NCBI GenBank assembly: GCA_024672275.1
Contig: GCA_024672275.1_4536.1
Strand: one strand, 5' to 3'
Length of the DNA: 64,000 nt
Origin: a phage
Position numbers and translations under genes: made by a program. Below, piece by piece: positions 35 to 12,057 of this stretch; the stretch's first letter is position 1, and each line of letters starts with the position of its first letter. The notes beneath the pieces are model-generated. The model was given only the letters and a program-made list of their open reading frames with translations, was not told where the DNA came from and made no database searches.

Positions 35-232
35 ATGGCAACATTGCACATAGTAGCGAAAGCAGGACAAATCAGCGTCGTGGTAAACGGTTTTACTGAG
101 TTCAGTCATCCCCAGGATGATCATGAAACGGTTTTATCTTTCATTGATTCCCTGTTAGAAATGGGAGTCATTACAGAAGACCAGCACGCTACAAAATGCA
201 AGCGCGTTAATCAAATTGCAGGAATAGAATAA
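35..232 (+). CDS. hypothetical small protein (65 aa)
   Basis: ATG at 35 preceded by purine-rich SD-like tract; same strand as following gene array; no recognisable motif. Confidence 0.45.
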   Translation: MATLHIVAKAGQISVVVNGFTEFSHPQDDHETVLSFIDSLLEMGVITEDQHATKCKRVNQIAGIE

Positions 233-238
233 AAAGTA

Positions 239-296
239 TTGACAACAAACAACAACCTGATAAGATGTATCACGTAGGGCGGCAATGGTGCCGCTC
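239..296 (+). promoter_or_regulatory. sigma70/sigA-type promoter + 5'-proximal GC hairpin cassette
   Basis: TTGACA 239-244, 16-nt spacer, TGn-TAAGAT 261-266, conserved CACGTAGGGCGG box, hairpin GCGGC/GCCGC 277-296 (20-mer TAGGGCGGCAATGGTGCCGC), 23 nt before ATG 320. Confidence 0.7.
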
Positions 297-319
297 ACAA
301 CAGAAGAGAGATTATAATC

Positions 320-592
320 ATGGCATCATATAGCGCAACAATGATCGTAGCTGGCACCACTGGTAAACCTATGAGCGGTGGCGGATCTTTCGCAAATATC
401 AACATTGACGGGCGTTTATCCCTGGACGCAGCGATCACCGTGGCGCGGGAAACATTTAAGAAAGAATGTAAATTCAATAAACAAGATTATCTCGGTTTTG
501 CTATTGAAAAAACCGCGCGCTTTGTTGATTATAAAAGCCCAAAAATGGTTGATACTACACTAAAAGCGCAAGATGTAGCGTTTTTACTTTAA
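320..592 (+). CDS. hypothetical protein (90 aa)
   Basis: ATG 320 directly downstream of promoter-hairpin cassette and purine-rich RBS; ORF track. Confidence 0.6.
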   Translation: MASYSATMIVAGTTGKPMSGGGSFANINIDGRLSLDAAITVARETFKKECKFNKQDYLGFAIEKTARFVDYKSPKMVDTTLKAQDVAFLL

Positions 593-595
593 GGC

Positions 596-651
596 TTGAC
601 ATTAACGAATAATTTGTTTATATGTTACATAAAGCGGGAATAGTTCCCGCT
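596..651 (+). promoter_or_regulatory. sigma70-type promoter + GC hairpin cassette
   Basis: TTGACA 596-601, 17-nt spacer, TATATG 619-624, hairpin AGCGGGAA-TAG-TTCCCGCT 633-651. Confidence 0.65.
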
Positions 652-668
652 ATTTGTAAGGTGGTAGA

Positions 669-926
669 ATGTTTTACATCAAATTAAAAGGTCACGTGAT
701 CGCGTTCAAAGATAACGCTTTTTACAGATTAGCAAAATATGCGTTAATACATCCCCACTATGTTTATATAAGGGGGCGTGATGAAATAAATATCTTTGAT
801 CAAACAACATGCGAAAACATCGAGATCCGCAAGGTTGGCGTACGTGATTATCGTACATCTTTCTACCCTTGCAAGGATTCAGCAAGTCTTTTTAAAGTAT
901 GCCAATTGTTGAAAAAAGGTGGTTAA
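669..926 (+). CDS. hypothetical protein (85 aa)
   Basis: ATG 669 after cassette; RBS GGTGG; ORF track. Confidence 0.6.
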   Translation: MFYIKLKGHVIAFKDNAFYRLAKYALIHPHYVYIRGRDEINIFDQTTCENIEIRKVGVRDYRTSFYPCKDSASLFKVCQLLKKGG

Positions 927-927
927 T

Positions 928-1485
928 ATGGGCCGCGAATATGTGATCCAGTCTTGGGTAAAACATGAAGCAGATGATCCGCGCATCATTCCCAATCATC
1001 TTATCGATGAATCCACGGGATATAGCGGTGAGCAAATAGGTAACAGATTAGCACGTAGTAACGGCAACGTAAAAGCGCGTTATGTGCGCCCTGGTTGGCT
1101 GGCAAATGGTAACGCTGATTTATCCAGTGCGGAAGATGCGAGCGACGGCGCGAAAGATAATCCTTTGTACAAAGTTGATCCGGCTTTTCGTGTCCTGGAT
1201 GAATACCCCAGCAAGATAGCGGCGCTCGATCAGGCCCTGGAAAGTAAGCGCATCACCTGGACCGCTTACAACATGGCAAAAAACGTACTTGATGGTAAAT
1301 TGATTCAAGCTGAAAGAAAATTAGCCAAAATTGCAGCCATAGCCCAGGAGGAAGACGAGGAGACAACGGAAGAGGAAGAGTACGAAGAGATCCCGCCGTT
1401 GTTGTGCGTTGATGCTTTTCCTGATTATCAGCCGACAGAGGAAGAAAAAAGGATCGCACTAGAAAACTTTGAAAATAGTCTTTGA
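928..1485 (+). CDS. hypothetical protein with acidic C-terminal tract (185 aa)
   Basis: Internal ATG 928 with RBS AAAAAGGTGG (track ORF begins at GTG 919); translationally coupled to 669..926. Confidence 0.6.
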   Translation: MGREYVIQSWVKHEADDPRIIPNHLIDESTGYSGEQIGNRLARSNGNVKARYVRPGWLANGNADLSSAEDASDGAKDNPLYKVDPAFRVLDEYPSKIAALDQALESKRITWTAYNMAKNVLDGKLIQAERKLAKIAAIAQEEDEETTEEEEYEEIPPLLCVDAFPDYQPTEEEKRIALENFENSL

Positions 1486-1540
1486 CATATCGCCGCCACT
1501 GGCATAATATTTACCACGTAGGGCGGCAATGGTGCCGCTC
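1482..1540 (+). promoter_or_regulatory. sigma70-type promoter + GC hairpin cassette
   Basis: TTGACA 1482-1487, N17, TAATAT 1505-1510, TTACCACGTAGGGCGG box, exact 20-mer hairpin 1521-1540. Confidence 0.7.
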
Positions 1541-1567
1541 ATAGTGAAATTATGCAAGAGGTTTACA

Positions 1568-1663
1568 ATGATTAATAAAGAAAATAGCTTGACGGTTGGA
1601 ACGATTAACGCTATCATTTTCGCCGTTCCATTTTGGGTTGTAGTAGCGGCTATTATTTTCTAA
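1568..1663 (+). CDS. small hydrophobic peptide (31 aa)
   Basis: ATG 1568 after cassette, RBS AGAGG; predicted single TM helix; below 60-aa ORF-track cutoff. Confidence 0.4.
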   Translation: MINKENSLTVGTINAIIFAVPFWVVVAAIIF

Positions 1664-1672
1664 AAAATATTC

Positions 1673-1733
1673 TTGACAACGTTTTTTAATCTGATAAGAT
1701 GTATCACATAGGGCGGCGGAATACTTCCCCGCC
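1673..1733 (+). promoter_or_regulatory. sigma70-type promoter + GC hairpin cassette
   Basis: TTGACA 1673-1678, N16, TGn-TAAGAT 1695-1700, hairpin GGCGGCGGAA-TAC-TTCCCCGCC 1711-1733. Confidence 0.7.
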
Positions 1734-1754
1734 AAAACAAAAAAGGGTAACACA

Positions 1755-2117
1755 ATGAGCAAGCAAATCAATACTATCATGTTTAATCTGGTATCTTTCC
1801 GCGATGATATGAAAAATTTACCACGTGAAACGGTTGATATTCATGTTTCAGCTTATCGCGCCCTTATTGACATGTTACCGCTAAAACGTGATCAACATGC
1901 CGCTAATATGATGCTTAATGCTATGCTTAAAAAGATGATTCAAACGGATCTCACCCTGGCGTATGAGTATCAAGGGCGCTTATATGCAACTTACAACAAG
2001 GCGGTACCTGGTCTGGGAAGTACCGAAGAGTTGCACGGCTTAAACCTGGATCAAAACACTTGGGATAGTATGCGCCGCGTTATGGTATGGGCTGAAAGCG
2101 GTAAAATTTACGAATAA
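1755..2117 (+). CDS. hypothetical protein (120 aa)
   Basis: ATG 1755 after cassette; ORF track. Confidence 0.6.
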   Translation: MSKQINTIMFNLVSFRDDMKNLPRETVDIHVSAYRALIDMLPLKRDQHAANMMLNAMLKKMIQTDLTLAYEYQGRLYATYNKAVPGLGSTEELHGLNLDQNTWDSMRRVMVWAESGKIYE

Positions 2118-2123
2118 AAACGG

Positions 2124-2183
2124 TTGACACTGTTTAAACTTCTGGTATAGTTTACCACATAGGGCGGGAAGTGGTTTCCCGCC
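2124..2183 (+). promoter_or_regulatory. sigma70-type promoter + GC hairpin cassette
   Basis: TTGACA 2124-2129, N16, TGn-TATAGT 2146-2151, hairpin GGCGGGAA-GTGGT-TTCCCGCC 2162-2183. Confidence 0.7.
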
Positions 2184-2205
2184 AACAATGAAAAAGGTTA
2201 TCATC

Positions 2206-2571
2206 ATGGCTATTAATATTAATGTTTCCTCTTATGCTACCCTGGCTGACACGGCTAAAATTGAATTATCCAGCATTGAGGCGGTGCATATTAGCGCCCG
2301 TCGCTGGTTTCAACAGTCCTACGGTAATACATATTTTTCTTTAATGGTTGACGTTGAGATCGGCGGTAAACTGATCGAGGTGGTTAACGTTCCGTTTCAA
2401 TATGGCTATGGTGATCATTTTGATACCGTCGCCCTGGAAGAATTTAGCAAGGTTGTTAATATGGAAGGTAAAGAGTTTTTACGCGGCGCGTATCTTTCCC
2501 GTTTTTGCCGTGACAATGGGATCACTGTATACAGTCATGCAAGCGATGTTAAACGTAAAAAAGATCTATAA
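2206..2571 (+). CDS. hypothetical protein (121 aa)
   Basis: Internal ATG 2206 with RBS AAAAAGG favoured over track start 2188; N-terminus MA.. like neighbouring genes. Confidence 0.55.
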   Translation: MAININVSSYATLADTAKIELSSIEAVHISARRWFQQSYGNTYFSLMVDVEIGGKLIEVVNVPFQYGYGDHFDTVALEEFSKVVNMEGKEFLRGAYLSRFCRDNGITVYSHASDVKRKKDL

Positions 2572-2577
2572 AAAGCA

Positions 2578-2637
2578 TTGACAACACGAATAAAAAGAGT
2601 AAACTGTATTACATAGAGAGCGGGAACACTTCCCGCC
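2578..2637 (+). promoter_or_regulatory. sigma70-type promoter + GC hairpin cassette
   Basis: TTGACA 2578-2583, N16, TAAACT 2600-2605, hairpin GCGGGAA-CAC-TTCCCGC about 2619-2637. Confidence 0.65.
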
Positions 2638-2660
2638 TCACTGAAAAAGAGAGAAAAATC

Positions 2661-2900
2661 ATGGCTAAATCTAAAATGTACAACGGTCACAAAAACAAAA
2701 CTCATTGGAATGTAAGCCTTTGGATTAATAACGATGAATCGTTATACCGGTTGGCCCAAGATTTTATTAACGCTAATGCTAATCGTAATGATGCGGCGCG
2801 GGATATGATGCTTTTTCTGGAACAAACTGGACAAGATAAAACGCCAGACGGTTTCAAATATAGCACTACTGCGATCCGTGCCGCGATGGTTGGAATGTAA
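2661..2900 (+). CDS. hypothetical protein (79 aa)
   Basis: ATG 2661 after cassette and AGAGAG RBS; ORF track. Confidence 0.6.
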   Translation: MAKSKMYNGHKNKTHWNVSLWINNDESLYRLAQDFINANANRNDAARDMMLFLEQTGQDKTPDGFKYSTTAIRAAMVGM

Positions 2901-2909
2901 TAAAAACAG

Positions 2910-2969
2910 TTGACAACGTTTAAAATTAGTGTAAGATGTATCACATAGGGCGGGAAGTGGTTTCCCGCC
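2910..2969 (+). promoter_or_regulatory. sigma70-type promoter + GC hairpin cassette
   Basis: TTGACA 2910-2915, N16, TAAGAT 2932-2937, hairpin identical to 2162-2183 copy (GGCGGGAAGTGGTTTCCCGCC) 2948-2969. Confidence 0.7.
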
Positions 2970-2990
2970 AAAACAGAGAGATTAAAGATT

Positions 2991-3218
2991 ATGGCTATCA
3001 ATATTGTTCGCGTATCCGGCACCGTTGGCACTTCCCAGGTCATTGCAGTTGTAACAAACAAAAAGATTAATGATGTATGTGAAAGCTTGAATAAGTGGGC
3101 TATTGCTAATTTTGGGGAATATGCAAGCGTTGAGTACATCGAATCCTACCAGGTGCCAACCATCAGCCTAACCGATCTCAACGTTGATCGCCTGTTATGC
3201 CTGGATGAATTAATCTGA
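2991..3218 (+). CDS. hypothetical protein (75 aa)
   Basis: ATG 2991 after cassette; ORF track. Confidence 0.6.
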   Translation: MAINIVRVSGTVGTSQVIAVVTNKKINDVCESLNKWAIANFGEYASVEYIESYQVPTISLTDLNVDRLLCLDELI

Positions 3219-3227
3219 AAAAGATTG

Positions 3228-3285
3228 TTGACACCGGAAAGAAAAAGAGTAAACTGTATTACGTAGGGCGGCAATAGTGCCGCTC
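3228..3285 (+). promoter_or_regulatory. sigma70-type promoter + GC hairpin cassette
   Basis: TTGACA 3228-3233, N16, TAAACT 3250-3255, hairpin GGCGGCAATAGTGCCGC (1 mismatch to 20-mer) 3266-3285. Confidence 0.7.
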
Positions 3286-3308
3286 ACAACAGAAGAGAGA
3301 TTATCACG

Positions 3309-3524
3309 ATGGCTAATATCCGTACACTGTTAAAAAATGCAAGTCAAGTTTTATTTTCAGATGACGAGTATTTCAATAAAGACATTACAGGCGTAAAAAA
3401 TCTTAAAGATGTAAAGGATGTGATAGGTATTCGCGGATCTTTACGTAAAGGTGACTACTACGGCAATAAAGTACAATATAAATTAAATCAGTCTTATGAT
3501 TTTACTTTGACAATTATTTCATAA
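3309..3524 (+). CDS. hypothetical protein (71 aa)
   Basis: ATG 3309 after cassette; ORF track. Confidence 0.6.
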   Translation: MANIRTLLKNASQVLFSDDEYFNKDITGVKNLKDVKDVIGIRGSLRKGDYYGNKVQYKLNQSYDFTLTIIS

Positions 3525-3530
3525 AACCGC

Positions 3531-3592
3531 TTGCAATCTTAATAAAATAAAGTAAACTGTATTACATCAAGGCGGCGGAATGGTCCACCGCC
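3531..3592 (+). promoter_or_regulatory. sigma70-type promoter + GC hairpin cassette
   Basis: TTGCAA 3531-3536, N16, TAAACT 3553-3558, hairpin GGCGGCGGAA-TGG-TCCACCGCC 3571-3592. Confidence 0.6.
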
Positions 3593-3616
3593 TAACAAAG
3601 AGAAGAGGAAAATATC

Positions 3617-3784
3617 ATGATCACTTTCGCTACCCGTGAAGCCGCTCGCAACGTTGCACGTAAAGTTAACGCCGCCAACCTGGGTGCTACTTTTAAAGCC
3701 CCGGTGAAAGATGAATCAGGAAAATGGATCTTCCCTGGTCTGCGTCATGCTGACAAGTTAGGTACTTTAAGCCTTAAAAAATAA
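3617..3784 (+). CDS. hypothetical small protein (55 aa)
   Basis: ATG 3617 after cassette, RBS AGAGGAAAA; below ORF-track size cutoff. Confidence 0.5.
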   Translation: MITFATREAARNVARKVNAANLGATFKAPVKDESGKWIFPGLRHADKLGTLSLKK

Positions 3785-3787
3785 TCG

Positions 3788-3824
3788 TTGACTTTTCGTT
3801 ATAGCGCCTTACAATGGGCGCTAT
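3788..3824 (+). promoter_or_regulatory. sigma70-type promoter with palindrome overlapping -10 (operator-like)
   Basis: TTGACT 3788-3793, N16, TACAAT 3810-3815; perfect inverted repeat ATAGCGCC/GGCGCTAT 3801-3824 straddles the -10 instead of lying downstream. Confidence 0.55.
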
Positions 3825-3858
3825 AGAGAAGAGAAACCACTACTAACAAGGAAACATC

Positions 3859-4080
3859 ATGATCACTTTCGCTATTGTCGCCGTTGTTGCTGGTCAGGTT
3901 TACATAAACGATACATTCACCACAGAAGACAAGGCCGCAGGAGACATAACCGCCGTTTACAATGAGTGCAAGGCAGTAGAAAGGATGTTAGCGCCTTGTA
4001 TGCTAATGAGTGAACGCCAGGACGGGATAACAGTATTTACTAACATTGAAACAGGGTACCAAATGGTAGTAACAAAATAA
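3859..4080 (+). CDS. hypothetical protein (73 aa)
   Basis: ATG 3859; ORF track. Confidence 0.6.
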   Translation: MITFAIVAVVAGQVYINDTFTTEDKAAGDITAVYNECKAVERMLAPCMLMSERQDGITVFTNIETGYQMVVTK

Positions 4081-4083
4081 AGC

Positions 4084-4141
4084 TTGACACGGATTTAATT
4101 TTCAGTAAATTGTTACACGTAGGGCGGGAATAGTTCCCGCT
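4084..4141 (+). promoter_or_regulatory. sigma70-type promoter + GC hairpin cassette
   Basis: TTGACA 4084-4089, N16, TAAATT 4106-4111, GTTACACGTAGGGCGG box, hairpin AGCGGGAA-TAG-TTCCCGCT 4121-4141. Confidence 0.7.
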
Positions 4142-4158
4142 AAAAAGAGAGAAAGACC

Positions 4159-4512
4159 ATGAAAGCACAAAATACAATTAAAGAGTACGTCCTTGCCGCT
4201 ATCGATTTTAATGATTACAGTATTACAACCGAAAAAGAGAAGATCGCGGAATTGATGCGCCGTTTTAATTCCGAGTACTGGTACCCTGATAACCAATCAC
4301 GTTTTAATTATAGTATTGTTAAAGCACTTGCATCATGGTTACAAGGTTTGCCATCAGATATCAATATCGCTTTCGAATATTGGGAAATTGATCGCTTGTT
4401 AACATCCTGGGGATACATTAAAGAGAATAGCAGCGATGATAAAATCCAACGAGAAAGGGAAAATTATTGGCTTTATATTGCAGGCGTGATCCTTGCTTGC
4501 TCTTATGAATGA
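4159..4512 (+). CDS. hypothetical protein (117 aa)
   Basis: ATG 4159 after cassette; ORF track. Confidence 0.6.
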   Translation: MKAQNTIKEYVLAAIDFNDYSITTEKEKIAELMRRFNSEYWYPDNQSRFNYSIVKALASWLQGLPSDINIAFEYWEIDRLLTSWGYIKENSSDDKIQRERENYWLYIAGVILACSYE

Positions 4513-4518
4513 TAAACC

Positions 4519-4572
4519 TTGACAATTTTACAAAACAGTTTAAATTAACAATATAGCGGCAATGGTGCCGCT
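4519..4572 (+). promoter_or_regulatory. sigma70-type promoter + GC hairpin cassette
   Basis: TTGACA 4519-4524, N16, TAAATT 4541-4546, hairpin AGCGGCAATGGTGCCGCT 4555-4572. Confidence 0.65.
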
Positions 4573-4591
4573 CATATGAAGAGGAAACAAA

Positions 4592-4738
4592 ATGAATACA
4601 TCTAATCGCGCAGAAAAAATTCAATCTTCCAAGATCCGCAAAGCCTGGAACGAGGAAGTGATCCGCAAAGGCGACAAGCGCAATAAAACAAAGCGCGGGA
4701 AGAGTGACAAATATAATTGGATGGATTTAGAGGATTAA
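4592..4738 (+). CDS. small basic protein (48 aa, K/R-rich)
   Basis: ATG 4592 after cassette; RBS AGAGGAAA; below ORF-track cutoff. Confidence 0.45.
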   Translation: MNTSNRAEKIQSSKIRKAWNEEVIRKGDKRNKTKRGKSDKYNWMDLED

Positions 4739-4744
4739 CATAAC

Positions 4745-4772
4745 AAGGGCGCACCAAGCGCCCTTTCTTTTT
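4745..4772 (+). terminator. rho-independent terminator
   Basis: Hairpin AGGGCGC-ACCAA-GCGCCCT followed by TTTCTTTTT; identical copy at 10451-10479. Confidence 0.7.
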
Positions 4773-4793
4773 ACATGTAGAGGATAAACAAAA

Positions 4794-4979
4794 ATGACTT
4801 TAAACGAGCTTAAAACAGCCTACAGCGCAACATTAAAAATAGCCGTGCGCTACCGTGACGAATACGGTTTTATTGCGCAGGGCGTGATCCTGGGCTTTTC
4901 TGACGATGGTTTGATCTATGTTGATGCACATCATAATAAGGTAAAACCTGAAAACGTCATTAGCATAAAATATCTTTAA
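4794..4979 (+). CDS. hypothetical protein (61 aa)
   Basis: ATG 4794 with RBS AGAGGA; ORF track. Confidence 0.5.
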   Translation: MTLNELKTAYSATLKIAVRYRDEYGFIAQGVILGFSDDGLIYVDAHHNKVKPENVISIKYL

Positions 4980-4985
4980 AAGTGG

Positions 4986-5045
4986 TTGACACCATAACTG
5001 GACCTGTTAAACTGTATTACATCAGGCGGGGAATAGTTCTCCACC
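4986..5045 (+). promoter_or_regulatory. sigma70-type promoter + GC hairpin cassette
   Basis: TTGACA 4986-4991, N16, TGn-TAAACT 5008-5013, imperfect hairpin GGCGGGGA-ATAGT-TCTCCACC 5025-5045. Confidence 0.6.
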
Positions 5046-5064
5046 ATACAAAAAGGTAAATATT

Positions 5065-5271
5065 ATGATCACCGCAAAACAAGAGAAAATCATTATCGAC
5101 GTTGCAGCCGTTGCCGCTATTGCTATTATTGGATCTTATTATGATACCCGTTTCCCGTCGGCTATGCATGAGGTCGCCGCCGTTGCATCAGTTGGCGTAC
5201 TGTTTTACGTTGGTAAACGCTATTTATCACCAATGATTAACAAGCTGACACCGTGGAAAAATAAAGGTTGA
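5065..5271 (+). CDS. hypothetical membrane protein (68 aa)
   Basis: ATG 5065; hydrophobic segment IIIDVAAVAAIAIIG; ORF track. Confidence 0.55.
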   Translation: MITAKQEKIIIDVAAVAAIAIIGSYYDTRFPSAMHEVAAVASVGVLFYVGKRYLSPMINKLTPWKNKG

Positions 5272-5325
5272 TCCTGTTTTATATTGTGTTATAGTTATCG
5301 TGTAGGGCGGCAATGGTGCCGCGCC
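5268..5325 (+). promoter_or_regulatory. sigma70-type promoter + GC hairpin cassette
   Basis: TTGATC 5268-5273, N16, TATAGT 5290-5295, exact 20-mer hairpin 5305-5322. Confidence 0.6.
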
Positions 5326-5342
5326 CTTTTGAGGATGCAATC

Positions 5343-5627
5343 ATGAGTAAAGCTAACACCGTGCTAATGTTTTCCCTGATTAATGATCCCGCTTACTTGT
5401 CCAACATGACGCAGGACGGTAACACATTAACGGCAACATTCACCAATAAGCTTGACCGGGTGATCATCGTCTCACTGAAAACAGTTAGTAAAGGCTTTTA
5501 CTCGTTAGCTTATCATTGGATCACCGATACCGATGAGACAAGCCAGGACTATAGCGCCCCTTTCCCTGAATCAATGGCACGGGAGATCATCGCCGCCGTT
5601 GTAAATGATGGTTTGTTTACTGCATAA
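5343..5627 (+). CDS. hypothetical protein (94 aa)
   Basis: Internal ATG 5343 with RBS GAGGAT; track start 5313 lies inside the promoter hairpin. Confidence 0.55.
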   Translation: MSKANTVLMFSLINDPAYLSNMTQDGNTLTATFTNKLDRVIIVSLKTVSKGFYSLAYHWITDTDETSQDYSAPFPESMAREIIAAVVNDGLFTA

Positions 5628-5644
5628 AATAATTTAGAAAAAGG

Positions 5645-5701
5645 CTTGCAATCATTTTGAGATAGTGTATATTTAATTCATAGGGCGGCGGGAATAGTTC
5701 C
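5645..5701 (+). promoter_or_regulatory. sigma70-type promoter + GC hairpin cassette
   Basis: TTGCAA 5645-5650, N16, TATATT 5667-5672, hairpin GGGAA-TAG-TTCCC within GGGCGGCGGGAATAGTTCCC 5682-5701. Confidence 0.55.
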
Positions 5702-5725
5702 CAAAGCAAACGAGAGGATTACACG

Positions 5726-5845
5726 ATGAGCAAGTACACAGTAGAATACACGGTAGAAAATCCGGCAGTATCCGAAGGTAAAAAGATGACATTTGCCATC
5801 AGTATAATCGCTTTCGTTGTCACTATCTTATCAATCATCTTATAA
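5726..5845 (+). CDS. small hydrophobic peptide (39 aa)
   Basis: ATG 5726 with RBS GAGAGGA; C-terminal TM helix; below ORF-track cutoff. Confidence 0.45.
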   Translation: MSKYTVEYTVENPAVSEGKKMTFAISIIAFVVTILSIIL

Positions 5846-5855
5846 GGTACATACC

Positions 5856-6017
5856 ATGAAAACAGCAGACATTATCAAAGAGATCGCCCTTGCCGCTGGT
5901 GTTGAAGTCGAGGAAGTGATCGCGCTCAATCTTACAGAAAACGATCTGCGCAACTATGAAGCGGAAAGCGTGAAAGCAAGCGGCGCGGTCCTGGTATATG
6001 ATCCGGCTAACAAGTAA
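5856..6017 (+). CDS. hypothetical small protein (53 aa)
   Basis: Internal ATG 5856 of track ORF 5817..6017; follows stop of previous peptide. Confidence 0.45.
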   Translation: MKTADIIKEIALAAGVEVEEVIALNLTENDLRNYEAESVKASGAVLVYDPANK

Positions 6018-6026
6018 GGGGATAAC

Positions 6027-6137
6027 ATGAATCCGAAAGATATGCAAGCATGGAAAGGGTACGACGATCTAAGCGCCTTGCGCAATAAGTCAAGCCGTAA
6101 CTTTAGACGGTTGGAAGCAAAGAAAAAGAAAAAATAG
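6027..6137 (+). CDS. hypothetical small basic protein (36 aa)
   Basis: ATG 6027 with RBS AAGGGG; ends TAG immediately before next promoter. Confidence 0.4.
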   Translation: MNPKDMQAWKGYDDLSALRNKSSRNFRRLEAKKKKK

Positions 6138-6138
6138 T

Positions 6139-6196
6139 TTGACAAGTCCGCCTAGTCTGATAATATATATCTTGTAGGGCGGCAATGGTGCCGCTC
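6139..6196 (+). promoter_or_regulatory. sigma70-type promoter + GC hairpin cassette
   Basis: TTGACA 6139-6144, N16, TGn-TAATAT 6161-6166, exact 20-mer hairpin 6177-6196. Confidence 0.7.
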
Positions 6197-6215
6197 ACAA
6201 GAAGAGAGAAAAATT

Positions 6216-6500
6216 ATGAAAATCACAAAAAGCCTAACTAATTATGCAGCACGTCGCGGATTATGTTTAACCGTTGAAAACTTAGGGAAAGAAGACTTTT
6301 TGTGTTTTTGGGAGCTTGAAAACGATTGCGAGTGGATGTTTTCCTATTCTATCTGCGAAGATCAAAACGGTTGTTTGTTAACCTGGCGCGGTAATATCTA
6401 TTTACCGGAAGAAATTAAAGAAGAGTTACCAGGTACGATCATGACAGAGAGACAGCTTAAGGAAGTGATCAATTTTGTAGGGCAAAACATTAAAAAATAA
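6216..6500 (+). CDS. hypothetical protein (94 aa)
   Basis: ATG 6216 after cassette; ORF track. Confidence 0.6.
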   Translation: MKITKSLTNYAARRGLCLTVENLGKEDFLCFWELENDCEWMFSYSICEDQNGCLLTWRGNIYLPEEIKEELPGTIMTERQLKEVINFVGQNIKK

Positions 6501-6501
6501 T

Positions 6502-6564
6502 TTGACAGTAGGCAAACAACGTAGTAAAGTTTATTACATAGAGCGGCGGAATGGTCCACCGCTC
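6502..6564 (+). promoter_or_regulatory. sigma70-type promoter + GC hairpin cassette
   Basis: TTGACA 6502-6507, N17, TAAAGT 6525-6530, hairpin GAGCGGCGGAA-TGG-TCCACCGCTC 6541-6564. Confidence 0.65.
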
Positions 6565-6585
6565 ACAACAGAAGAGAAACAAATC

Positions 6586-6756
6586 ATGATCCCGACTATG
6601 TTTTATGTATCGCGCAAAGGTCACAATATTTTTTGGTCTGAAGATTTAAATGAAGCTATGACGTTTGCCCGTGATCGTGTTGCTATCGGTGGCGTTAACA
6701 TCACCGTAACCGATGAAAATGGCATTGAATACTATAACGGCGACGATGAAGAATAA
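6586..6756 (+). CDS. hypothetical small protein (56 aa)
   Basis: Internal ATG 6586 downstream of hairpin and AGAAGAGA RBS; track start 6502 is the TTG inside the -35 box. Confidence 0.55.
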   Translation: MIPTMFYVSRKGHNIFWSEDLNEAMTFARDRVAIGGVNITVTDENGIEYYNGDDEE

Positions 6757-6763
6757 TTAATGA

Positions 6764-6784
6764 GGCGGGGGAGTATTCCCCGCC
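6764..6784 (+). promoter_or_regulatory. GC hairpin of cassette type without recognisable promoter
   Basis: Hairpin GGCGGGGGAG-TAT-TCCCCGCC 20 nt upstream of ATG 6804; no -35/-10 found upstream. Confidence 0.45.
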
Positions 6785-6803
6785 GTCAATAAAGAGGTAA
6801 ATC

Positions 6804-7073
6804 ATGAAAATATCATTGGACGTTGCAATCAAGGCCATCGAGTCCGGTTACATCCTGGTAAAAGATGATAAGGCTAAAATAGTGCATCATGTTAACAAGG
6901 AAACAGGCGAAAGCATGATCACATATAAAGCCGCCTACTTTCTCCAATCAGTAGCAGATCCGCGCGTACAACGCCAGGTTACGGCGACTATTGCTAAAAA
7001 ATTATGTGCTTTACAGGGTGCAAGTTTTAACGAGATCGCCCCGTGTTTTGAGTGGTCAAGCTTGAAAAAATAA
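6804..7073 (+). CDS. hypothetical protein (89 aa)
   Basis: ATG 6804 with RBS AAAGAGG; ORF track. Confidence 0.6.
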   Translation: MKISLDVAIKAIESGYILVKDDKAKIVHHVNKETGESMITYKAAYFLQSVADPRVQRQVTATIAKKLCALQGASFNEIAPCFEWSSLKK

Positions 7074-7074
7074 T

Positions 7075-7136
7075 TTGACAACAATTATAAATCGGGTAGA
7101 ATGTATTTCGTAGGGCGGGGCAATAAGGCAACGCCC
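7075..7136 (+). promoter_or_regulatory. sigma70-type promoter + GC hairpin cassette
   Basis: TTGACA 7075-7080, N16, TAGAAT 7097-7102, hairpin GGGCG..CGCCC 7113-7136. Confidence 0.6.
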
Positions 7137-7154
7137 ATTAATGAGGGTAGAATC

Positions 7155-7259
7155 ATGTTAGAGAAAATTTTCACGGTTGTAATAGTGGGCCTGGCGTTAT
7201 CGGTTGGAGTGGTTGCAACTATGGCTAATATGATCCTATCTTCCCACGGTATCGGTTAA
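7155..7259 (+). CDS. small hydrophobic peptide (34 aa)
   Basis: ATG 7155 with RBS GAGGG; predicted TM helix. Confidence 0.45.
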   Translation: MLEKIFTVVIVGLALSVGVVATMANMILSSHGIG

Positions 7260-7269
7260 GGTGAAACAA

Positions 7270-7431
7270 ATGATCACGAACAAAACAGGCAAAACGGAAT
7301 TTTTACGCGGCTTACAAGTTGGTAAGCCTGAGATCTGGCATTGCACGAAGTCCGCGCATAATGAAATGAAAGATTTTACCGCTACTTTACAACGTGTTAA
7401 AATATCTATCACACAGAAAAAGCCTTGTTAG
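7270..7431 (+). CDS. hypothetical small protein (53 aa)
   Basis: ATG 7270 with RBS AAGGTG; below ORF-track cutoff. Confidence 0.4.
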   Translation: MITNKTGKTEFLRGLQVGKPEIWHCTKSAHNEMKDFTATLQRVKISITQKKPC

Positions 7432-7480
7432 TAGTAGAAAACGAGATCCCGCAAACTATTATTATTGTCGAGCGTACAGC

Positions 7481-7867
7481 ATGAAAACAGAAATCATTAT
7501 TGAAATCATCAACGGCTATAAAGAAGCCTTTATTTTTGCTGAATCAGCAAGGGATCATGAAGGTAATTTTATTGATAACTTAGACGATTATGATTTTTCT
7601 CCTAGCGCGGACGAACGGATCGCCCAGGATGTAACAGCCTTTATTAATGCTAATCTTGCCGCTATCTCTGAGGCAATGAGCGACGGCGCAACAGCCAACC
7701 AGATCGGGAATGATTTACATTTTACCCGTAACGGTCACGGCGTAGGCTTTTGGGATCGCCCTGAGATATACACCACTAACACGGCGAACCGCCTAACCAA
7801 TGCAGCTAAGTTTATGCCGAACGTGTCGGCTTACATTGGTGAAGATAATTTGATTTATATTGAATAA
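7481..7867 (+). CDS. hypothetical protein (128 aa)
   Basis: Internal ATG 7481 of track ORF 7394..7867 (track start is GTG inside previous ORF); start uncertain, weak RBS. Confidence 0.5.
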   Translation: MKTEIIIEIINGYKEAFIFAESARDHEGNFIDNLDDYDFSPSADERIAQDVTAFINANLAAISEAMSDGATANQIGNDLHFTRNGHGVGFWDRPEIYTTNTANRLTNAAKFMPNVSAYIGEDNLIYIE

Positions 7868-7873
7868 AAAGTA

Positions 7874-7931
7874 TTGACACAGATCGCCAGTGTGCTAATA
7901 TTTACCACGTAGGGCGGCAATGGTGCCGCTC
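7874..7931 (+). promoter_or_regulatory. sigma70-type promoter + GC hairpin cassette
   Basis: TTGACA 7874-7879, N16, TGn-TAATAT 7896-7901, TTACCACGTAGGGCGG box, exact 20-mer hairpin 7912-7931. Confidence 0.7.
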
Positions 7932-7950
7932 ACTGTAAAAGGTAAACATT

Positions 7951-8142
7951 ATGAAAACTATCACCTATCTGGAATCGAATAACATGTTTTTTGCGCCCGT
8001 TGATGAAATCATCGAAGCATTAAACAACGAGGAAGGGATCAAAGGTTTATCTTATAGCCAACTTTTAGGAATGGTTGCAGCAAATGTAGAGCTTGCTTAC
8101 TATGTTGAAAATTTTGATGAAGCTGTAATCTTTACAAAATAA
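7951..8142 (+). CDS. hypothetical protein (63 aa)
   Basis: ATG 7951 after cassette; ORF track. Confidence 0.6.
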   Translation: MKTITYLESNNMFFAPVDEIIEALNNEEGIKGLSYSQLLGMVAANVELAYYVENFDEAVIFTK

Positions 8143-8145
8143 TCC

Positions 8146-8202
8146 TTGATCTAATCTCTTAAATAACTTATATTTAATGCGTAGGGCGGCAATGGTGCCG
8201 CC
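8146..8202 (+). promoter_or_regulatory. sigma70-type promoter + GC hairpin cassette
   Basis: TTGATC 8146-8151, N17, TATATT 8169-8174, exact 20-mer hairpin 8183-8202. Confidence 0.6.
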
Positions 8203-8220
8203 GATAATGAGGAAAGTAAA

Positions 8221-8520
8221 ATGGAAACTATCGCTATTGTTACCGTAGAAAAACTGGTTGTTGGTGATGTATTCGCGTTAATGGTGCCTAACAGCAGCAA
8301 GCTGGGCGCTTATGAAGTAATGGATCATAAAAATGAATCATTTGGCGACGGTTGCACAATGGCGGTAAAATCTTTAAAGGATGGAATTATCCGCCAGGCT
8401 AACTGGCACAAAGGGAATCAAGTCGGTTTAATATCAGCTAATTTCTTGCCAGAAGAGCAAACATTAGATCAACTATCAGGCGGTAAGACGTTAGCCGAAC
8501 TACTGGAAACAGCGATCTAA
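8221..8520 (+). CDS. hypothetical protein (99 aa)
   Basis: ATG 8221 with RBS GAGGAAAG; ORF track. Confidence 0.6.
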   Translation: METIAIVTVEKLVVGDVFALMVPNSSKLGAYEVMDHKNESFGDGCTMAVKSLKDGIIRQANWHKGNQVGLISANFLPEEQTLDQLSGGKTLAELLETAI

Positions 8521-8527
8521 TCGACAA

Positions 8528-8545
8528 GGGGGCGGCAACGCCCCC
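8528..8545 (+). promoter_or_regulatory. GC hairpin with GNRA-type loop, no recognisable promoter
   Basis: GGGGGCG-GCAA-CGCCCCC 30 nt upstream of ATG 8575. Confidence 0.4.
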
Positions 8546-8574
8546 ATTAAACGCAATAGAAAGAGGATAGACAC

Positions 8575-8859
8575 ATGAAAAAGATGATCGCAGTAGTTGC
8601 CCTGGTTGTTGGTATTAACGCGCCTGTAATGGCGAAAGAGTTGCCAGAATCCATCACGTTAACCGATATTAACGCAGTGAACCGGATCGGTGTTAATTAT
8701 CGCCTATGCCTTGCCGCTAAAACTTTCCAGGACGGCACAACAGAGTACTACGGATTCGAGGGTATCCGCTGCGGTGAGCTTTCACGCGACCTTAAGGAAG
8801 ATCCAGACCTTGAGGCCATACCGATGACCGTAAACGGTAAAGCCCAGGTAAACCGCTAA
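8575..8859 (+). CDS. secreted/periplasmic small protein (94 aa)
   Basis: N-terminal Sec-type signal peptide MKKMIAVVALVVGINAPVMA; RBS AGAGGA. Confidence 0.6.
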   Translation: MKKMIAVVALVVGINAPVMAKELPESITLTDINAVNRIGVNYRLCLAAKTFQDGTTEYYGFEGIRCGELSRDLKEDPDLEAIPMTVNGKAQVNR

Positions 8860-8882
8860 CCATGAGAAAGGTAATCATCACA

Positions 8883-8996
8883 ATGGGGATCGTAGTAGCA
8901 ACGCTGGCGCTAATCCCCTTCCTGATTAAATATGTGCTAATCAGTGTTGTTCTGGTAGTCAGTGACCTATTGGAAACGGTTGGCACCTGGTTTTAA
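8883..8996 (+). CDS. small hydrophobic peptide (37 aa)
   Basis: ATG 8883 with RBS AGAAAGG; alternative start ATG 8862; one predicted TM helix. Confidence 0.4.
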   Translation: MGIVVATLALIPFLIKYVLISVVLVVSDLLETVGTWF

Positions 8997-9008
8997 GGAG
9001 TAATAAAA

Positions 9009-9200
9009 ATGAATGCAGAACAAGTTAGAAAGGTATTAGCAGCGTTGCGGTATCACAACCATAGCAAGGTAAAGAATGATCCTGACTATGTGGATTCAAG
9101 CCTGGAAGAAGACACATTGCAAGCTATAAGCCATATGCAAAAATTGCTTAAGCGTATGACAGAAAAGAATAGATCTGATTATATAGGTGACGAGATCTAA
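9009..9200 (+). CDS. hypothetical protein (63 aa)
   Basis: ATG 9009 with RBS AAGGAG; ORF track. Confidence 0.55.
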   Translation: MNAEQVRKVLAALRYHNHSKVKNDPDYVDSSLEEDTLQAISHMQKLLKRMTEKNRSDYIGDEI

Positions 9201-9206
9201 AATAGC

Positions 9207-9264
9207 TTGCACAATGTATCGGATAGTGTAAGATGTATCACGTAGGGCGGCAATGGTGCCGCCC
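9207..9264 (+). promoter_or_regulatory. sigma70-type promoter + GC hairpin cassette
   Basis: TTGCAC 9207-9212, N16, TAAGAT 9229-9234, exact 20-mer hairpin 9245-9264. Confidence 0.65.
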
Positions 9265-9284
9265 ACTGAAAAAGGTAAATCATC

Positions 9285-9473
9285 ATGGCAATCGTAAAAG
9301 CAAAAGATCTCAAGGTCGGTATGGAACTGGACACGGGCGCGATGGTAGTGACCGTTATTATCATCGATGCGGATCTCGTAGAGCTTGAATTACAGGTTTA
9401 TGATCCTGATTGCGGGGAGGTTGACTTTTTATCTTTCCAGGAGAACGCCGAGGAAACGTATAACATCAACTAA
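9285..9473 (+). CDS. hypothetical protein (62 aa)
   Basis: ATG 9285 after cassette; ORF track. Confidence 0.6.
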   Translation: MAIVKAKDLKVGMELDTGAMVVTVIIIDADLVELELQVYDPDCGEVDFLSFQENAEETYNIN

Positions 9474-9492
9474 AACACTGATAAAAAACAAG

Positions 9493-9521
9493 GTTGACGA
9501 AAGTCAGCCTTTTTGTTATGC
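9493..9521 (+). promoter_or_regulatory. putative sigma70-type promoter followed by long structured leader
   Basis: TTGACG 9493-9498, N17, TATGCT 9516-9521; about 200-nt leader with GC-rich element GGGCGGCACTGGCAACGGGGGAGG before ATG 9729. Confidence 0.35.
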
Positions 9522-9728
9522 TTATTGAACGGGCGGCACTGGCAACGGGGGAGGTAATCACCGGAAGACCCCGCTATATATTGATAGCTAACATCTATCA
9601 AACAACAAAACATCAAAGAGATAAACTATCAAATCTTTACAATTCTACCTATTGACCAATAAATCACAACAGTTTAATATTGTTTTTAGAGGTTAAAATA
9701 TTCCCCAAACGAAAACAGGAAAAAGAAA

Positions 9729-9965
9729 ATGAAAGAAGTCATGATCCTCAAAAAATCACCTATTTTACGTGGCGGTTTTATCGCTTACTCTGATGATTTG
9801 TTAATTGCAACAGTTGCAAAAATACTAAAATCAGAAGATGACAGTAAAAACGGCGTTTATCGTATCTGTTTCACCCGTGGAAAATTACAAGGTAAGATCG
9901 CTTATGCCTTTGATTTACAAGATGTAAACGATAAAATATGCGCTGTTATTGATTATGCAAAATAG
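9729..9965 (+). CDS. hypothetical protein (78 aa)
   Basis: ATG 9729 with RBS ACAGGAAAAAG; ORF track. Confidence 0.55.
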   Translation: MKEVMILKKSPILRGGFIAYSDDLLIATVAKILKSEDDSKNGVYRICFTRGKLQGKIAYAFDLQDVNDKICAVIDYAK

Positions 9966-9977
9966 TTAATTTTCTTA

Positions 9978-10020
9978 TTGACACCGGATCACGCTTGCAT
10001 TATTATTTATCACGTAGGGC
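9978..10020 (+). promoter_or_regulatory. sigma70-type promoter with conserved box but no hairpin
   Basis: TTGACA 9978-9983, N17, TATTAT 10001-10006, conserved TTATCACGTAGGGC box retained but second hairpin arm absent. Confidence 0.6.
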
Positions 10021-10052
10021 AAATCATTTTAAACGGTAAACGAGGAATCACC

Positions 10053-10436
10053 ATGAGCAATATCATCAACCTGGCAGCGACTGTAAACGGTAAAGACTTT
10101 AACGGCGCTGTAGACCGTGATCCTATGTGGTGCTTATCAGTGTTTAAAGGCGACCTGGTTGAAGTTAGAACAACCGAAGGTTATAGCGACGATTATAAAT
10201 GCGAGATCCATTTACATAACTGGTACACGGGTAAAACTTATGCGCTGAATCACGCGTTTATCGGAAAAATCGAATATCGTGAGATGATCGACGAAGAAAC
10301 GGGGCAAGATTTTAGCGAAAACGTTTATATTCGTTCAGAAACATTGGCCGAACGTTTGATCGAGAAAATGAAAGCAAAAAATAAAATTAATTTATCTCAT
10401 TGGATTGATATAACAAACGATCCAGCTTATCAATAA
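10053..10436 (+). CDS. hypothetical protein (127 aa)
   Basis: Internal ATG 10053 with RBS ACGAGG; track start 9978 is the TTG of the -35 box. Confidence 0.6.
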   Translation: MSNIINLAATVNGKDFNGAVDRDPMWCLSVFKGDLVEVRTTEGYSDDYKCEIHLHNWYTGKTYALNHAFIGKIEYREMIDEETGQDFSENVYIRSETLAERLIEKMKAKNKINLSHWIDITNDPAYQ

Positions 10437-10450
10437 ATAACATTTCATAC

Positions 10451-10479
10451 CAGGGCGCACCAAGCGCCCTTTCTTTTTG
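10451..10479 (+). terminator. rho-independent terminator
   Basis: AGGGCGC-ACCAA-GCGCCCT + TTTCTTTTT; identical to 4745-4772; closes the + strand early-like array. Confidence 0.7.
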
Positions 10480-12057
10480 CCCGAACAATGTTGATAGCTT
10501 TCGCCTATGAAAAACCGACACAGAACAAAATTGAATAAATCGCGGTATCGAGCTAATCAACCATTAAACGAATAACCATACCTCCCAGGGTAACAGGCTG
10601 TTAGAGAGCCATTTATAGCGGTTAAAATCGATCAACAACCAACAACAAACCATCAAAAACACCCTTTTACCTCCTTTCTAGTGCAATGATAACCATTATC
10701 ATCTATACATGATTATATATGCAATATAAGTGCATAACTATAATGTTGATAATAGTTCGCAACAACTAACTAACCAACAACCTAAAACAATAAGCAAACT
10801 AATTATAATCAAAGGAATAATAGCAAGATGATTGATAACGACAAACAATCAAACCATGATGAATACTAAGCAAGATAACGATAACACGACAAAACAACCA
10901 ACTAACGAACAATAACAAACGAAATCATTAAAATAATAACTATTGCCATAATAGTGACTGAATGAATCATTACAAAACGAATCATTCCCAAGATCATCAT
11001 TAGCACGCTATGCCGGACACATAGCGAGCTAATAATAAGCCAACTACACCCCAACAATCATAACCATCGGTGATGGTTATTTCTTGTTACTGCGTAGCTT
11101 GCAATAATTGCAAGCGTAATGACGCTTACACTTATTGCGCTGGCTTATTATTAGCATTATATGTAATTACCAAGATCATAACATTAGCGCAATAACAATA
11201 ATCATTGTAATTGTTACAAGATGAGATTATTAGCATGGCAATAATTATTGGGGGGCAATGGGAGGATGATTATCATCATTCCGATACATTGCACACTATG
11301 CACATAATAGAATAAAAGTCAATAATTTTGGGGCGAAATGTTACCGCCACGGGCGGGAATGTTGAGCACTAAGAAAAGAGATAAACCTTAATCATGGGGG
11401 CGTAAATATCCGAGGATTGCCAACGGCGATCCGGTAGGATGTTGAGCAAGTTTTCTTAAACGTAAATAAAATCAGAAAATTCTTGATTTATTTTAGTTTT
11501 TATGTTAATAAACGTTTAAATAATAATCATTCTCATATGAATAATAGTCCGTCTGTCATGCGCGGGATCAGTTGACATTGTTCCGTCATATGATGAAGTT
11601 GCCAAACCATTGATAAATAAGCGTTTGTGTGATTTATAATCAAGTGGCCCACCTTGTCGCTATGTTGGCATGAGCCTTGCATAAGTCATTGAATACGAAT
11701 GATAATTATTCTCATTCGCATGATATTTGGGAATTGTCGCTGCGTGGACCTGACGGCCCGAAAATTCGCGTTAAGCACTTCTTACGTATGCGCCATGATT
11801 TTTGCCATATCATATTGATTCTATTAGATATTCTTGCCATGATTGCCATGAAACAGGGTGTGTCGAAATAATCTCTCCCCGTAGATATTTTGGGTTACTT
11901 TTTATACAAGAGTGGGGTGTCAAAAATAATCGATATATATGGGATAATTAATAGGAATCCCCTATGGTAATTCGATTGTAATTGCCGAAGATTGATCGTA
12001 TGATGTTGGTGATTGATGATTGCCATGAAAGATGGCTAACGATGAGAGGAGATTGTC
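10480..12057. other. ORF-free, strand-skewed, repeat-rich spacer between gene modules
   Basis: No credible ORF; 10600-11000 is A+C-rich with CAACAA/AAC repeats; ATTAGC/AATAAT repeats 10980-11260; direct repeats GGAATGTTGAGCA (11358, 11428), TTGCCATGAAA and GTGTC(G/A)AAA..AATC (11838-11870, 11913-12030). Confidence 0.5.

Follow-up and report, generated by a model that had tools for sequence, protein, structure and literature searches.

A long gap in a series of short gene cassettes

Why is one small phage gene preceded by a long non-coding stretch, when its neighbours have short leaders? The gap at positions 9474-9728 (255 nt) extends from the stop codon of ORF 9285-9473 to the ATG of ORF 9729-9965 and is approximately 3-fold longer than the gaps nearby. 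The original prediction, made from the sequence, took it for a structured leader that could be riboregulatory or encode a small RNA. Here, we analysed this gap in the context of the whole stretch of 64,000 nt, referred to as the window, and of related phage genomes. With somewhat better than even confidence, we favour a plainer explanation, in which the interval consists of standard phage transcription signals around a vestigial cassette without a gene, that is, an orphan promoter followed by a vestigial leader.

The window is of the type of a Phapecoctavirus-like (rV5/phAPEC8-type) E. coli phage. A megablast search with positions 9200-10000 returned 111 phage records, nearly all from E. coli myophages of the Stephanstirmvirinae (Phapecoctavirus and Justusliebigvirus); since none of the 111 covers 80% or more of the query, the gene combination of the window is a new mosaic. 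Positions 1-10470 form a series of small plus-strand genes, and 13 cassettes within positions 1-10100 share a near-identical promoter and TATCACGTAGGGC module. The order in this module is an A-tract, TTGACA, 17 nt, TAnnnT, the TATCACGTAGGGC start region, usually a 5' hairpin (for example, GGGCGGCA-ATGG-TGCCGCTC), a Shine-Dalgarno sequence and ATG. The leaders of neighbouring cassettes are indeed as short as had been predicted, with 40-48 nt from start to ATG wherever the start codon was correctly picked. No tRNA or tmRNA was found within the 64-kb window. ORF 9729 itself encodes 78 aa of no known family, and its cassette is present only in a subset of relatives.

A blastn search with the gap found ~142 phage records belonging to two subfamilies, with one place per record. 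Conservation of the leader in related phages, which the original prediction had proposed as a check, was therefore observed. The shared part, hereafter called the block, corresponds to window positions 9509/9510-9656 and runs from the T-run of a terminator to the -35 element of a promoter (P2, described below). Vequintavirus genomes (FV3, RudolfGeigy and others) carry a short form of the block and share its first 55 nt (9508-9564).

A terminator overlapped by a putative promoter

The gap begins with the intrinsic terminator of gene 9285-9473 (plus strand, 9482-9516), composed of an A-tract, a 9-bp hairpin at 9490-9511 and a T-run at 9512-9516. In the pattern scan, the hairpin is followed by TTTTGTT and has a stop codon upstream, at 9471-9473. 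It folds at -13.9 kcal/mol (z = -4.83), and 0 of 200 shuffles fold as well. All that is expected of an intrinsic terminator is found here, namely a stable G+C-containing hairpin, a T-run directly after it and a position 3' of a stop codon. Because of the A-tract upstream of the hairpin, this terminator may work in both directions. In Schickermooser and phAPEC8, the counterpart hairpins carry an ARNold terminator annotation. The hairpin at this place differs among relatives, and one variant is compensated (CAGGGC/GTCCTG versus TAGGGC/GTCCTA).

A promoter had been predicted near 9493, and the consensus scan does find a promoter-like site there, P1 (plus strand, 9494-9522), with the -35 element TTGACG at 9494-9499, a 17-nt spacer, an extended TG at 9514-9515 and the -10 element TATGCT at 9517-9522 (9 of 12 matches). 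The promoter is likely real, but the same TTGACG falls within the terminator hairpin. The -10 element reads TATNNT in 18 of 18 homologues and the invariant ACGGGCGGCA lies 6-7 nt further on. Moreover, four unrelated sequence types occur upstream of the T-run (the hairpin of the window, CAGGGCTTG...GTCCTG hairpins, GGGGTTGACTTGTTCGGCCCC hairpins and a hairpin-less Justusliebigvirus sequence), each with TTG 16-18 nt before the -10. Such a recurrence of a suitably placed TTG in four unrelated contexts would be unlikely to arise by chance. P1 is probably a real promoter, with a transcription start expected at ~9529, and its transcript would bear a 5' extension of ~200 nt ahead of ORF 9729.

The pattern scan detected no terminator-like site between 9523 and 10451. 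Of the two features expected of a small-RNA gene, the locus has its own promoter-like site, P1, while a 3' end signal before the next gene is lacking; with no terminator between P1 and the ATG to define a 3' end, the proposal of a small RNA was not supported. In the literature searched for Vequintavirinae or Stephanstirmvirinae, we found no transcriptome, transcription start map or sRNA report.

The GC-rich element resembles part of an early-gene leader

The original prediction described a GC-rich string followed by A/C-rich sequence, and this description proved accurate, with the string at 9531-9574 and the A/C-rich tract after it. In alignments, the element (plus strand, 9529-9574) begins with the invariant ACGGGCGGCAC at 9529-9539, which is followed by a variable G-rich stretch, a Shine-Dalgarno-like GGAGGT (9550-9555), the invariant AATCAC (9556-9561) and a C. 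GGA stands at 9563-9565, the place of the ATG in standard leaders, and is followed by a C-rich tail that varies. The ATG position is occupied by GGA, GGG or AGG in 18 of 18 homologues.

We compared this element with the ten genuine leaders of the same window, in one short alignment on which its homology to leaders rests. GGGCGGCA followed by (C)CTGG corresponds to the 5' arm plus loop of the hairpin found in standard leaders, and GGGCGGCA with TGG is located at nearly the same distance from the -10 as in standard leaders. A second invariant island, G.AG..AATCACC, aligns with GAGATTATCACG-ATG (3309) and GAGGAATCACC-ATG (10053) of genuine leaders. No TGCCGCYC partner, which would form the 3' hairpin arm, is present after GGGCGGCA in the element. 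Compared to a standard cassette, the block thus has one hairpin arm only, and the start codon and a conserved ORF are absent. We infer that the GC-rich element is the vestigial leader of a cassette that was lost or never completed. There is no second copy of it in the window, and relatives have it at one place per genome.

The A/C-rich tract and the promoter of ORF 9729

The GC-rich element is followed by an ATATA core (plus strand, 9575-9580; TATATA in the window), invariant in 18 of 18 homologues, and by a 7-bp perfect inverted repeat, TTGATAG-N7-CTATCAA (9581-9601, no strand assigned), which can be read as a weak RNA hairpin or as a DNA palindrome. Its fold (-4.7 kcal/mol, z = -7.25) indicates a true inverted repeat that is weak as RNA, and no T-run follows it. 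Its arms, unlike its free spacer, are conserved; the sole changes in the arms break end pairs, and none is compensated. Related copies are found at 10491, 10832 and 33671.

The A/C-rich, G-poor tract (plus strand, 9602-9651) was delimited by its composition and conservation and contains a second CTATCAA at 9626-9632. Positions 9580-9651 comprise 34 A, 15 C, 4 G and 19 T. In 78-nt windows the C/G ratio is 3-4.75, corresponding to the 98th-99.9th percentile, i.e., the top 1-2% of the plus strand. A rut-like composition is therefore present (an untranslated stretch of ~80 nt with C>G and little structure, the weak 7-bp hairpin only), a likeness of composition alone. The last ~30 nt of the tract, directly upstream of the P2 -35 element, are nearly invariant. 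Of the 12 long-form homologues that allowed the measurement, 11 have a distance of 96 nt from AATCAC to the TTGAC of P2.

P2, the promoter of the ORF 9729 cassette (plus strand, 9652-9680), was found by the pattern scan and consists of TTGACC starting at 9652, a 17-nt spacer and TAATAT ending at 9680; in the consensus scan, P1 and P2 both satisfy the sigma-70 hexamer rule with a spacing of 16-18 nt. Transcription from P2 would start at ~9687, leaving an ordinary 5' UTR of ~42 nt (plus strand, 9687-9728) with a Shine-Dalgarno-like AGGAAA before ORF 9729 (plus strand). With P2 and this 42-nt leader, ORF 9729 is predicted to be independent of the 200-nt leader. The long non-coding gap is thus real, at 255 nt, but the leader that P2 would give the gene is of ordinary length. 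P2 is kept together with ORF 9729 in ETEC-TG, alia and A145, and is swapped for a standard TTGACA...TATCACGTAGGGC promoter where another gene follows the block, with a mosaic junction between phages at the P2 -35 element. In the Vequintavirus short form, the ATATA core begins an A/T-rich stretch directly upstream of P2, and the P1-P2 interval is fully explained by a 55-nt pseudo-leader plus an A/T-rich stretch like those upstream of other promoters.

The block lies between different genes in related phages

The flanks of the block differ between phages on both sides, and the gene cassettes around it are always swapped ones. Three arrangements emerged when the homologues were mapped onto the window. 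In ETEC-TG, alia and A145, the ORF 9729 cassette comes after the block; in AMO3598, 92CQ, SD2, phAPEC8 and Schickermooser, the block leads to the next promoter (9976 in the window), with various genes; and in ECGD1 and the IMG/VR sequence L080, it is joined directly to 10472, with no gene after it. In FV3 and A7_1, as in phAPEC8 and Schickermooser, the block joins other genes. In AMO3598, 92CQ, phAPEC8, Schickermooser and ECGD1, no ORF 9729 cassette separates the block from the next promoter. Since its downstream partners differ, the block is not the leader of ORF 9729; judged by these alignments, it is a constant element flanked by cassettes that can be exchanged, and the breakpoints fall in repeated promoter sequences. 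It should be noted that IMG/VR provided only 2 true homologues and that 5 of 99 loci from a loose pattern scan for homologues were real.

When both are compared in one and the same pair of genomes, the block is less conserved than neighbouring genes are at their third-codon positions: it shows 89.3% identity to ETEC-TG, versus 99% for third positions of ORF 9729, and 85.5% identity to alia, versus 92-99% for those of flanking genes. Variation is densest in the middle and 3' part of the GC-rich element, and A141 is a chimera of two alleles, indicating that recombination occurs inside this element. ACGGGCGGCA, AATCAC and ATATA are invariant in all 18 aligned sequences, and AATCTTTA is invariant across 12 long-form sequences. 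These invariant islands, together with the fixed 96-nt spacing, suggest some sequence-specific constraint.

Phage genomes usually lose useless DNA. The retention of the block as a single copy in ~142 genomes counts against reading it as vestigial.

An ORF-free region of ~1.6 kb extends from 10472 to 12057 and probably contains the physical genome ends. The last 329 bp of the Schickermooser record are identical to its first 329 bp and map to window positions 11445-11773, and a 328-bp terminal repeat is described for this phage by Korf et al. (PMC6563267). The block would probably lie ~2.1 kb from the right genome end. The rV5 paper also shows a 'non-coding' box (PMC3606486).

Search for RNA structure, coding capacity and other functions

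Rfam gave no match at gathering thresholds over the whole window, and at E-values up to 10 on positions 9400-9800 the best matches reached 12-22 bits against thresholds of 35-249. In the absence of an Rfam match, a riboswitch or known RNA family was rejected. The whole gap folds with z = -2.19, mostly owing to the terminator hairpin. The leader had been called structured; however, the GC-rich element has no excess stability over its dinucleotide shuffles, 136 of 200 of which are as stable (z = +0.48), and 13 homologues of the element gave z from +1.43 to -1.80, FV3 excepted (-3.95), with best predicted structures that differ. RNAalifold on 16 sequences of the element yielded -3.4 kcal/mol and 7 pairs, none of them compensated. 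For the whole block in 12 long-form sequences, it yielded -10.3 kcal/mol with 2 of 23 pairs compensated, both in one helix (GGAGGT/ACCCC versus GAAGAT/ATCTT), and a covariation score of 0.168, compared to 0.07-0.12 for slid partners; the slid controls reach 3 compensated pairs. This helix, which seemed compensatory in the 12 sequences, was rejected since slid controls equal it; it is also broken in phAPEC8 and in the metagenomic haplotypes L173 and L206, where GAAGAT occurs with ACTCC or ACCCC and A is opposite C.

A stable conserved fold of the GC-rich element was thus rejected on either strand, with no excess folding and no robust covariation, and structure prediction revealed no conserved fold of the leader in the window or in most homologues. 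The idea of a riboregulatory leader fares no better, given that an Rfam match and excess stability are lacking, that covariation is absent or marginal and that the block precedes different genes or none. A put-type antiterminator was not supported either, as two conserved stem-loops after the promoter were not found.

No conserved ORF was found either. The frame at 9494/9518-9655 contains stops in alia, SD2, A145, A7_1, LTH01, ECGD1 and L080, is frameshifted in 92CQ and is broken in at least 8 homologues overall; a 2-nt indel in the GC-rich element shifts the upstream part of the frame between alleles. With tblastn, no wider protein family was detected, matches being restricted to the same locus, which most annotators left empty. 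The broken frames and these same-locus matches led us to reject a relic of a gene still alive elsewhere. Host mimicry or antisense action on the host was rejected, with no match to E. coli genomes even at E = 10. Candidate minus-strand promoters at TAGAAT (9647-9642) and GATAGT (near 9625) are not conserved among homologues, and a replication origin was not supported by skew, as the GC skew merely tracks the direction of transcription, without a switch here.

Alternative explanations

A functional RNA with little structure, either a non-coding RNA or a long regulatory leader, transcribed from P1 and acting by sequence rather than by fold, seems unlikely to us, although it draws on several of the above observations. 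It could be a Rho-loading (rut-like) attenuator deciding whether P1 transcription reaches the downstream cassettes, or a decoy or sponge for a factor, or for a complementary hairpin arm, acting on early mRNA 5' ends. P1 is conserved, the invariant islands are set within an otherwise variable element, and one of them, ACGGGCGGCAC, is the 5' arm of the hairpins of other early mRNAs. The tract is untranslated, and its C/G ratio of 3-4.75 is exceeded, in the plus-transcribed 28 kb, only where the ORF-free terminal region begins; in ECGD1 and L080, which have no gene after the block, a P1 transcript can only be non-coding. However, a 3' end signal and structure are lacking, few nearby sequences vary as much as the centre of the element, C accounts for only ~21% of a tract that is rich in A and not in C, the A/C-rich tract is missing altogether from the short Vequintavirus form, and there is no complementarity to E. 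coli genomes. In a version that we consider very unlikely, P1 drives a conserved, essentially unstructured RNA whose invariant 5' end would be a free copy of the 5' hairpin arm of most early mRNAs and whose tail would be G-poor and A/C-rich. Such an RNA would act by sequence, sequestering an early-mRNA 5'-end factor, loading Rho or Hfq, or activating the ORF-free terminal region for replication or packaging, and in ECGD1-type genomes, with no gene after the block, a non-coding role would be the only one possible for P1.

Conservation of the DNA itself leads to a different proposal, which we regard as quite unlikely: a control region bound by a phage or host protein, whose sites would be the palindrome, a third CTATCAA half-site, the IHF-like TATCAAATCTTTA and the 30 invariant bp ahead of P2. 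This protein would regulate P1 or P2, or serve replication or packaging near the genome end ~2.1 kb downstream. Conserved palindrome arms around a free spacer, without compensatory changes, would fit such binding, as would the spacing to P2, fixed at 96 nt. The palindrome has 4 copies with at most 2 mismatches in 64 kb, three of them within 9.5-10.9 kb, and sites with at most 3 mismatches number 12 versus 4.9 expected; the block is, moreover, always just upstream of the ORF-free terminal region that holds the terminal repeat. Yet the motifs are short and A/T-rich, the Vequintavirus form is devoid of the palindrome and its surrounding tract, and GC skew has no origin-like switch here. Highly improbable, in our view, is a minus-strand sRNA of ~85 nt antisense to the GC-rich element, starting from TTGATA (9601-9596)-N15-TATATA (9580-9575) and ending at hairpin 9511-9490 and the T-run 9489-9482. 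The A-tract beside the hairpin on the plus strand gives the terminator a bidirectional look in the window, and TATATA and CTATCAA are conserved in the long form, but a spacer of 15 nt would suit a promoter poorly, the short form has no such -35 element, and reverse-strand folds are no better than forward ones. The block is also kept in Justusliebigvirus-type sequences, which have no hairpin, and in RudolfGeigy-type sequences, which have no minus-strand T-run. We give hardly any credence to a small protein, be it the 45-53 aa ORF at 9494/9518-9655 or the 30-53 aa CDSs annotated in ETEC-TG, RudolfGeigy, AMO3598 and 92CQ. The window, Schickermooser, phAPEC8, L101 and AMO3598 keep the frame open, but its ATG exists only where the -10 reads TATGCT and has no Shine-Dalgarno sequence at a usable distance; the allelic 2-nt indel, the in-frame stops or frameshift in at least 8 homologues, the restriction of homologues to one locus and the empty annotation of most records speak against it as well.

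Proposed organization and its implications

We therefore return to the orphan promoter and vestigial leader as the preferred explanation. In this scheme, the hairpin at 9490-9511 would end the upstream transcription unit, with termination at 9512-9516, and P1, built into and just after this hairpin, would restart transcription at ~9529. The first 45 nt of the P1 transcript would be a degenerate copy of the standard early-gene leader, which keeps the 5' hairpin arm, the purine-rich Shine-Dalgarno-like box and AATCACC and is devoid of the 3' arm and of a start codon. P1 transcripts would then cross the A/C-rich, G-poor tract untranslated and enter the following cassette, whose gene is ORF 9729 here but differs or is missing in other phages; this cassette would use P2 and its 42-nt leader for an ordinary mRNA. 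ORF 9729 would thus stand behind tandem promoters, and the 'long leader' would be a conserved landmark module for cassette exchange rather than a dedicated riboregulator. The scheme supposes, from sequence, that P1 and P2 fire and that the GC-rich element descends from a genuine leader. The untranslated tract would have no specific function beyond that of a spacer or P2 upstream region, and may also attract Rho.

Overall, the finding is a previously unannotated but ordinary combination of a terminator, an orphan promoter, a vestigial leader and a second promoter. If this reading is right, the small CDSs annotated inside the block in ETEC-TG, RudolfGeigy, AMO3598 and 92CQ are probably spurious, and an unannotated promoter overlaps an annotated terminator. 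The block would likewise illustrate how rV5/phAPEC8-type phages exchange small early genes at repeated promoter sequences, the exchange breakpoints being the T-run and -10 of P1 and the -35 of P2. That it is kept in ~142 genomes leaves room for a sequence-specific function.

Comparison with known systems

Early-gene cassettes of this kind are comparable to the promoter-gene-terminator 'morons' of other phages. The block shares with the early cassettes of its own phage a sigma-70-type promoter, GGGCGGCA and TGG equally far from the -10, the purine-rich box and AATCACC (as in GAGGAATCACC-ATG of the 10053 gene), the strand and the position after a terminator. It differs from them in having neither TATCACGTA nor the 3' hairpin arm, in showing GGA, GGG or AGG for ATG without a conserved ORF, and in the ~75 nt of A/C-rich sequence that, in the long form, precede the next promoter.

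The HK022 put RNA is a cis-acting antiterminator transcribed immediately downstream of early promoters and needs two conserved stem-loops. The block is likewise a conserved transcribed element (if P1 fires) right after a promoter in a terminator-rich region, but has no conserved stems. The E. coli rho leader and the Salmonella mgtA and corA leaders are Rho-dependent attenuators located in long untranslated leaders. Like these, the block offers, downstream of a promoter, an untranslated G-poor tract of ~70-80 nt with C>G and little predicted structure; the likeness is by composition only, as the tract is A-rich rather than C-rich and is missing in the Vequintavirus form.

At T4 oriF and oriG and the T7 primary origin, a promoter and an A/T-rich unwinding element lead to an R-loop primer. 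A predicted promoter, a G-rich segment of its transcript and a stretch of ~75% A+T are also found here, near a large ORF-free region with a terminal repeat, whereas a skew switch is not, and the short form is without most of the A/T-rich tract. Finally, E. coli gal P1/P2 and rrn P1/P2 are tandem promoters feeding one gene, and the present locus similarly has two co-oriented predicted sigma-70 sites, 158 nt apart (~90 nt in the short form), before one coding region. It differs from gal and rrn in that the upstream promoter travels with the block rather than with the gene, and the genes downstream vary among phages.

Sequences surrounding the conserved non-coding block

The pseudo-leader, a GC-rich element at 9529-9574 within the conserved non-coding block (9509-9656), carries GGA where standard leaders have ATG. 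Its closest match, when taken as GGAGGTAATCACC-GGA, is the ribosome-binding region GAGGAATCACC-ATG of the gene at 10053-10436, which comes next after ORF 9729 (9729-9965, plus strand) and belongs to the Pfam family Phage_30_8 (PF06019, E = 1e-28).

In several relatives, GenBank annotates CDSs for 'hypothetical proteins' of 30-53 aa inside the block: ETEC-TG (1541-1648 of the homologous locus), RudolfGeigy (1206-1295), AMO3598 (616-750 and, on the minus strand, 507-656) and 92CQ (574-732). Among the homologues these annotated frames lack conservation, and they are probably spurious calls. The block also occurs in records under another label: several of the 'UNVERIFIED Campylobacter phage' entries MG0656xx (e.g., loci L130 and L135) are rV5- or Justusliebigvirus-type coliphage genomes, and their Campylobacter host label looks doubtful.

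Two Vequintavirinae, LTH01 (770-1050) and A7_1 (about 1390-1700), possess ~300 nt devoid of any plausible plus-strand ORF, located between the standard promoter that follows the block and the next promoter. This stretch may specify another non-coding transcript.

The ORF-free region and the probable genome ends

Window positions 10472-12057 form a 1.6 kb region without ORFs. In its 5' part, at about 10580-10950, CAACAA-type repeats are abundant, and the composition of the window shows here the strongest C-over-G skew of the plus-transcribed half. Based on homology with the 329-bp direct terminal repeat of Schickermooser, a related coliphage, the physical genome ends would map to 11445-11773, and the window would therefore contain the junction of both ends.

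The palindrome TTGATAG-N7-CTATCAA was observed without mismatch at 9581-9601, with one mismatch at 10491-10511 and 33671-33691, and with two at 10832-10852; three of these copies lie within or flank the ORF-free terminal region. Only about 60 nt separate the first two copies in ECGD1 and in an IMG/VR relative (L080).

By matching to the consensus AATGATAATCATTATC, Fur-box-like sequences were located at 10685-10703, 11262-11280, 11519-11534 and 11698-11716, the best match being AATGATAACCATTATC (1 mismatch). Counting matches with ≤3 mismatches over the 64-kb window, we found 7 of the 10 clustered in the 1-kb stretch that holds these sites (1.7 expected per window). Since two of the sites sit inside the putative terminal repeat, these sequences may alternatively be repeats associated with it.

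Early promoters and 5' hairpins

Across 13 early promoters (268-10020), the start region TATCACGTAGGGC is almost invariant and is followed by the 5' hairpins, whose stems are distinguished by compensated changes (GGCGGCA/TGCCGC, GGGAAG/TTCCCG and GGCGGAA/TTCCCCGCC). The early mRNAs thus look as if they carry a real, conserved 5' stem-loop. In the annotation of the related coliphage phAPEC8, part of it is labelled as a PHIRE 'promoter'.
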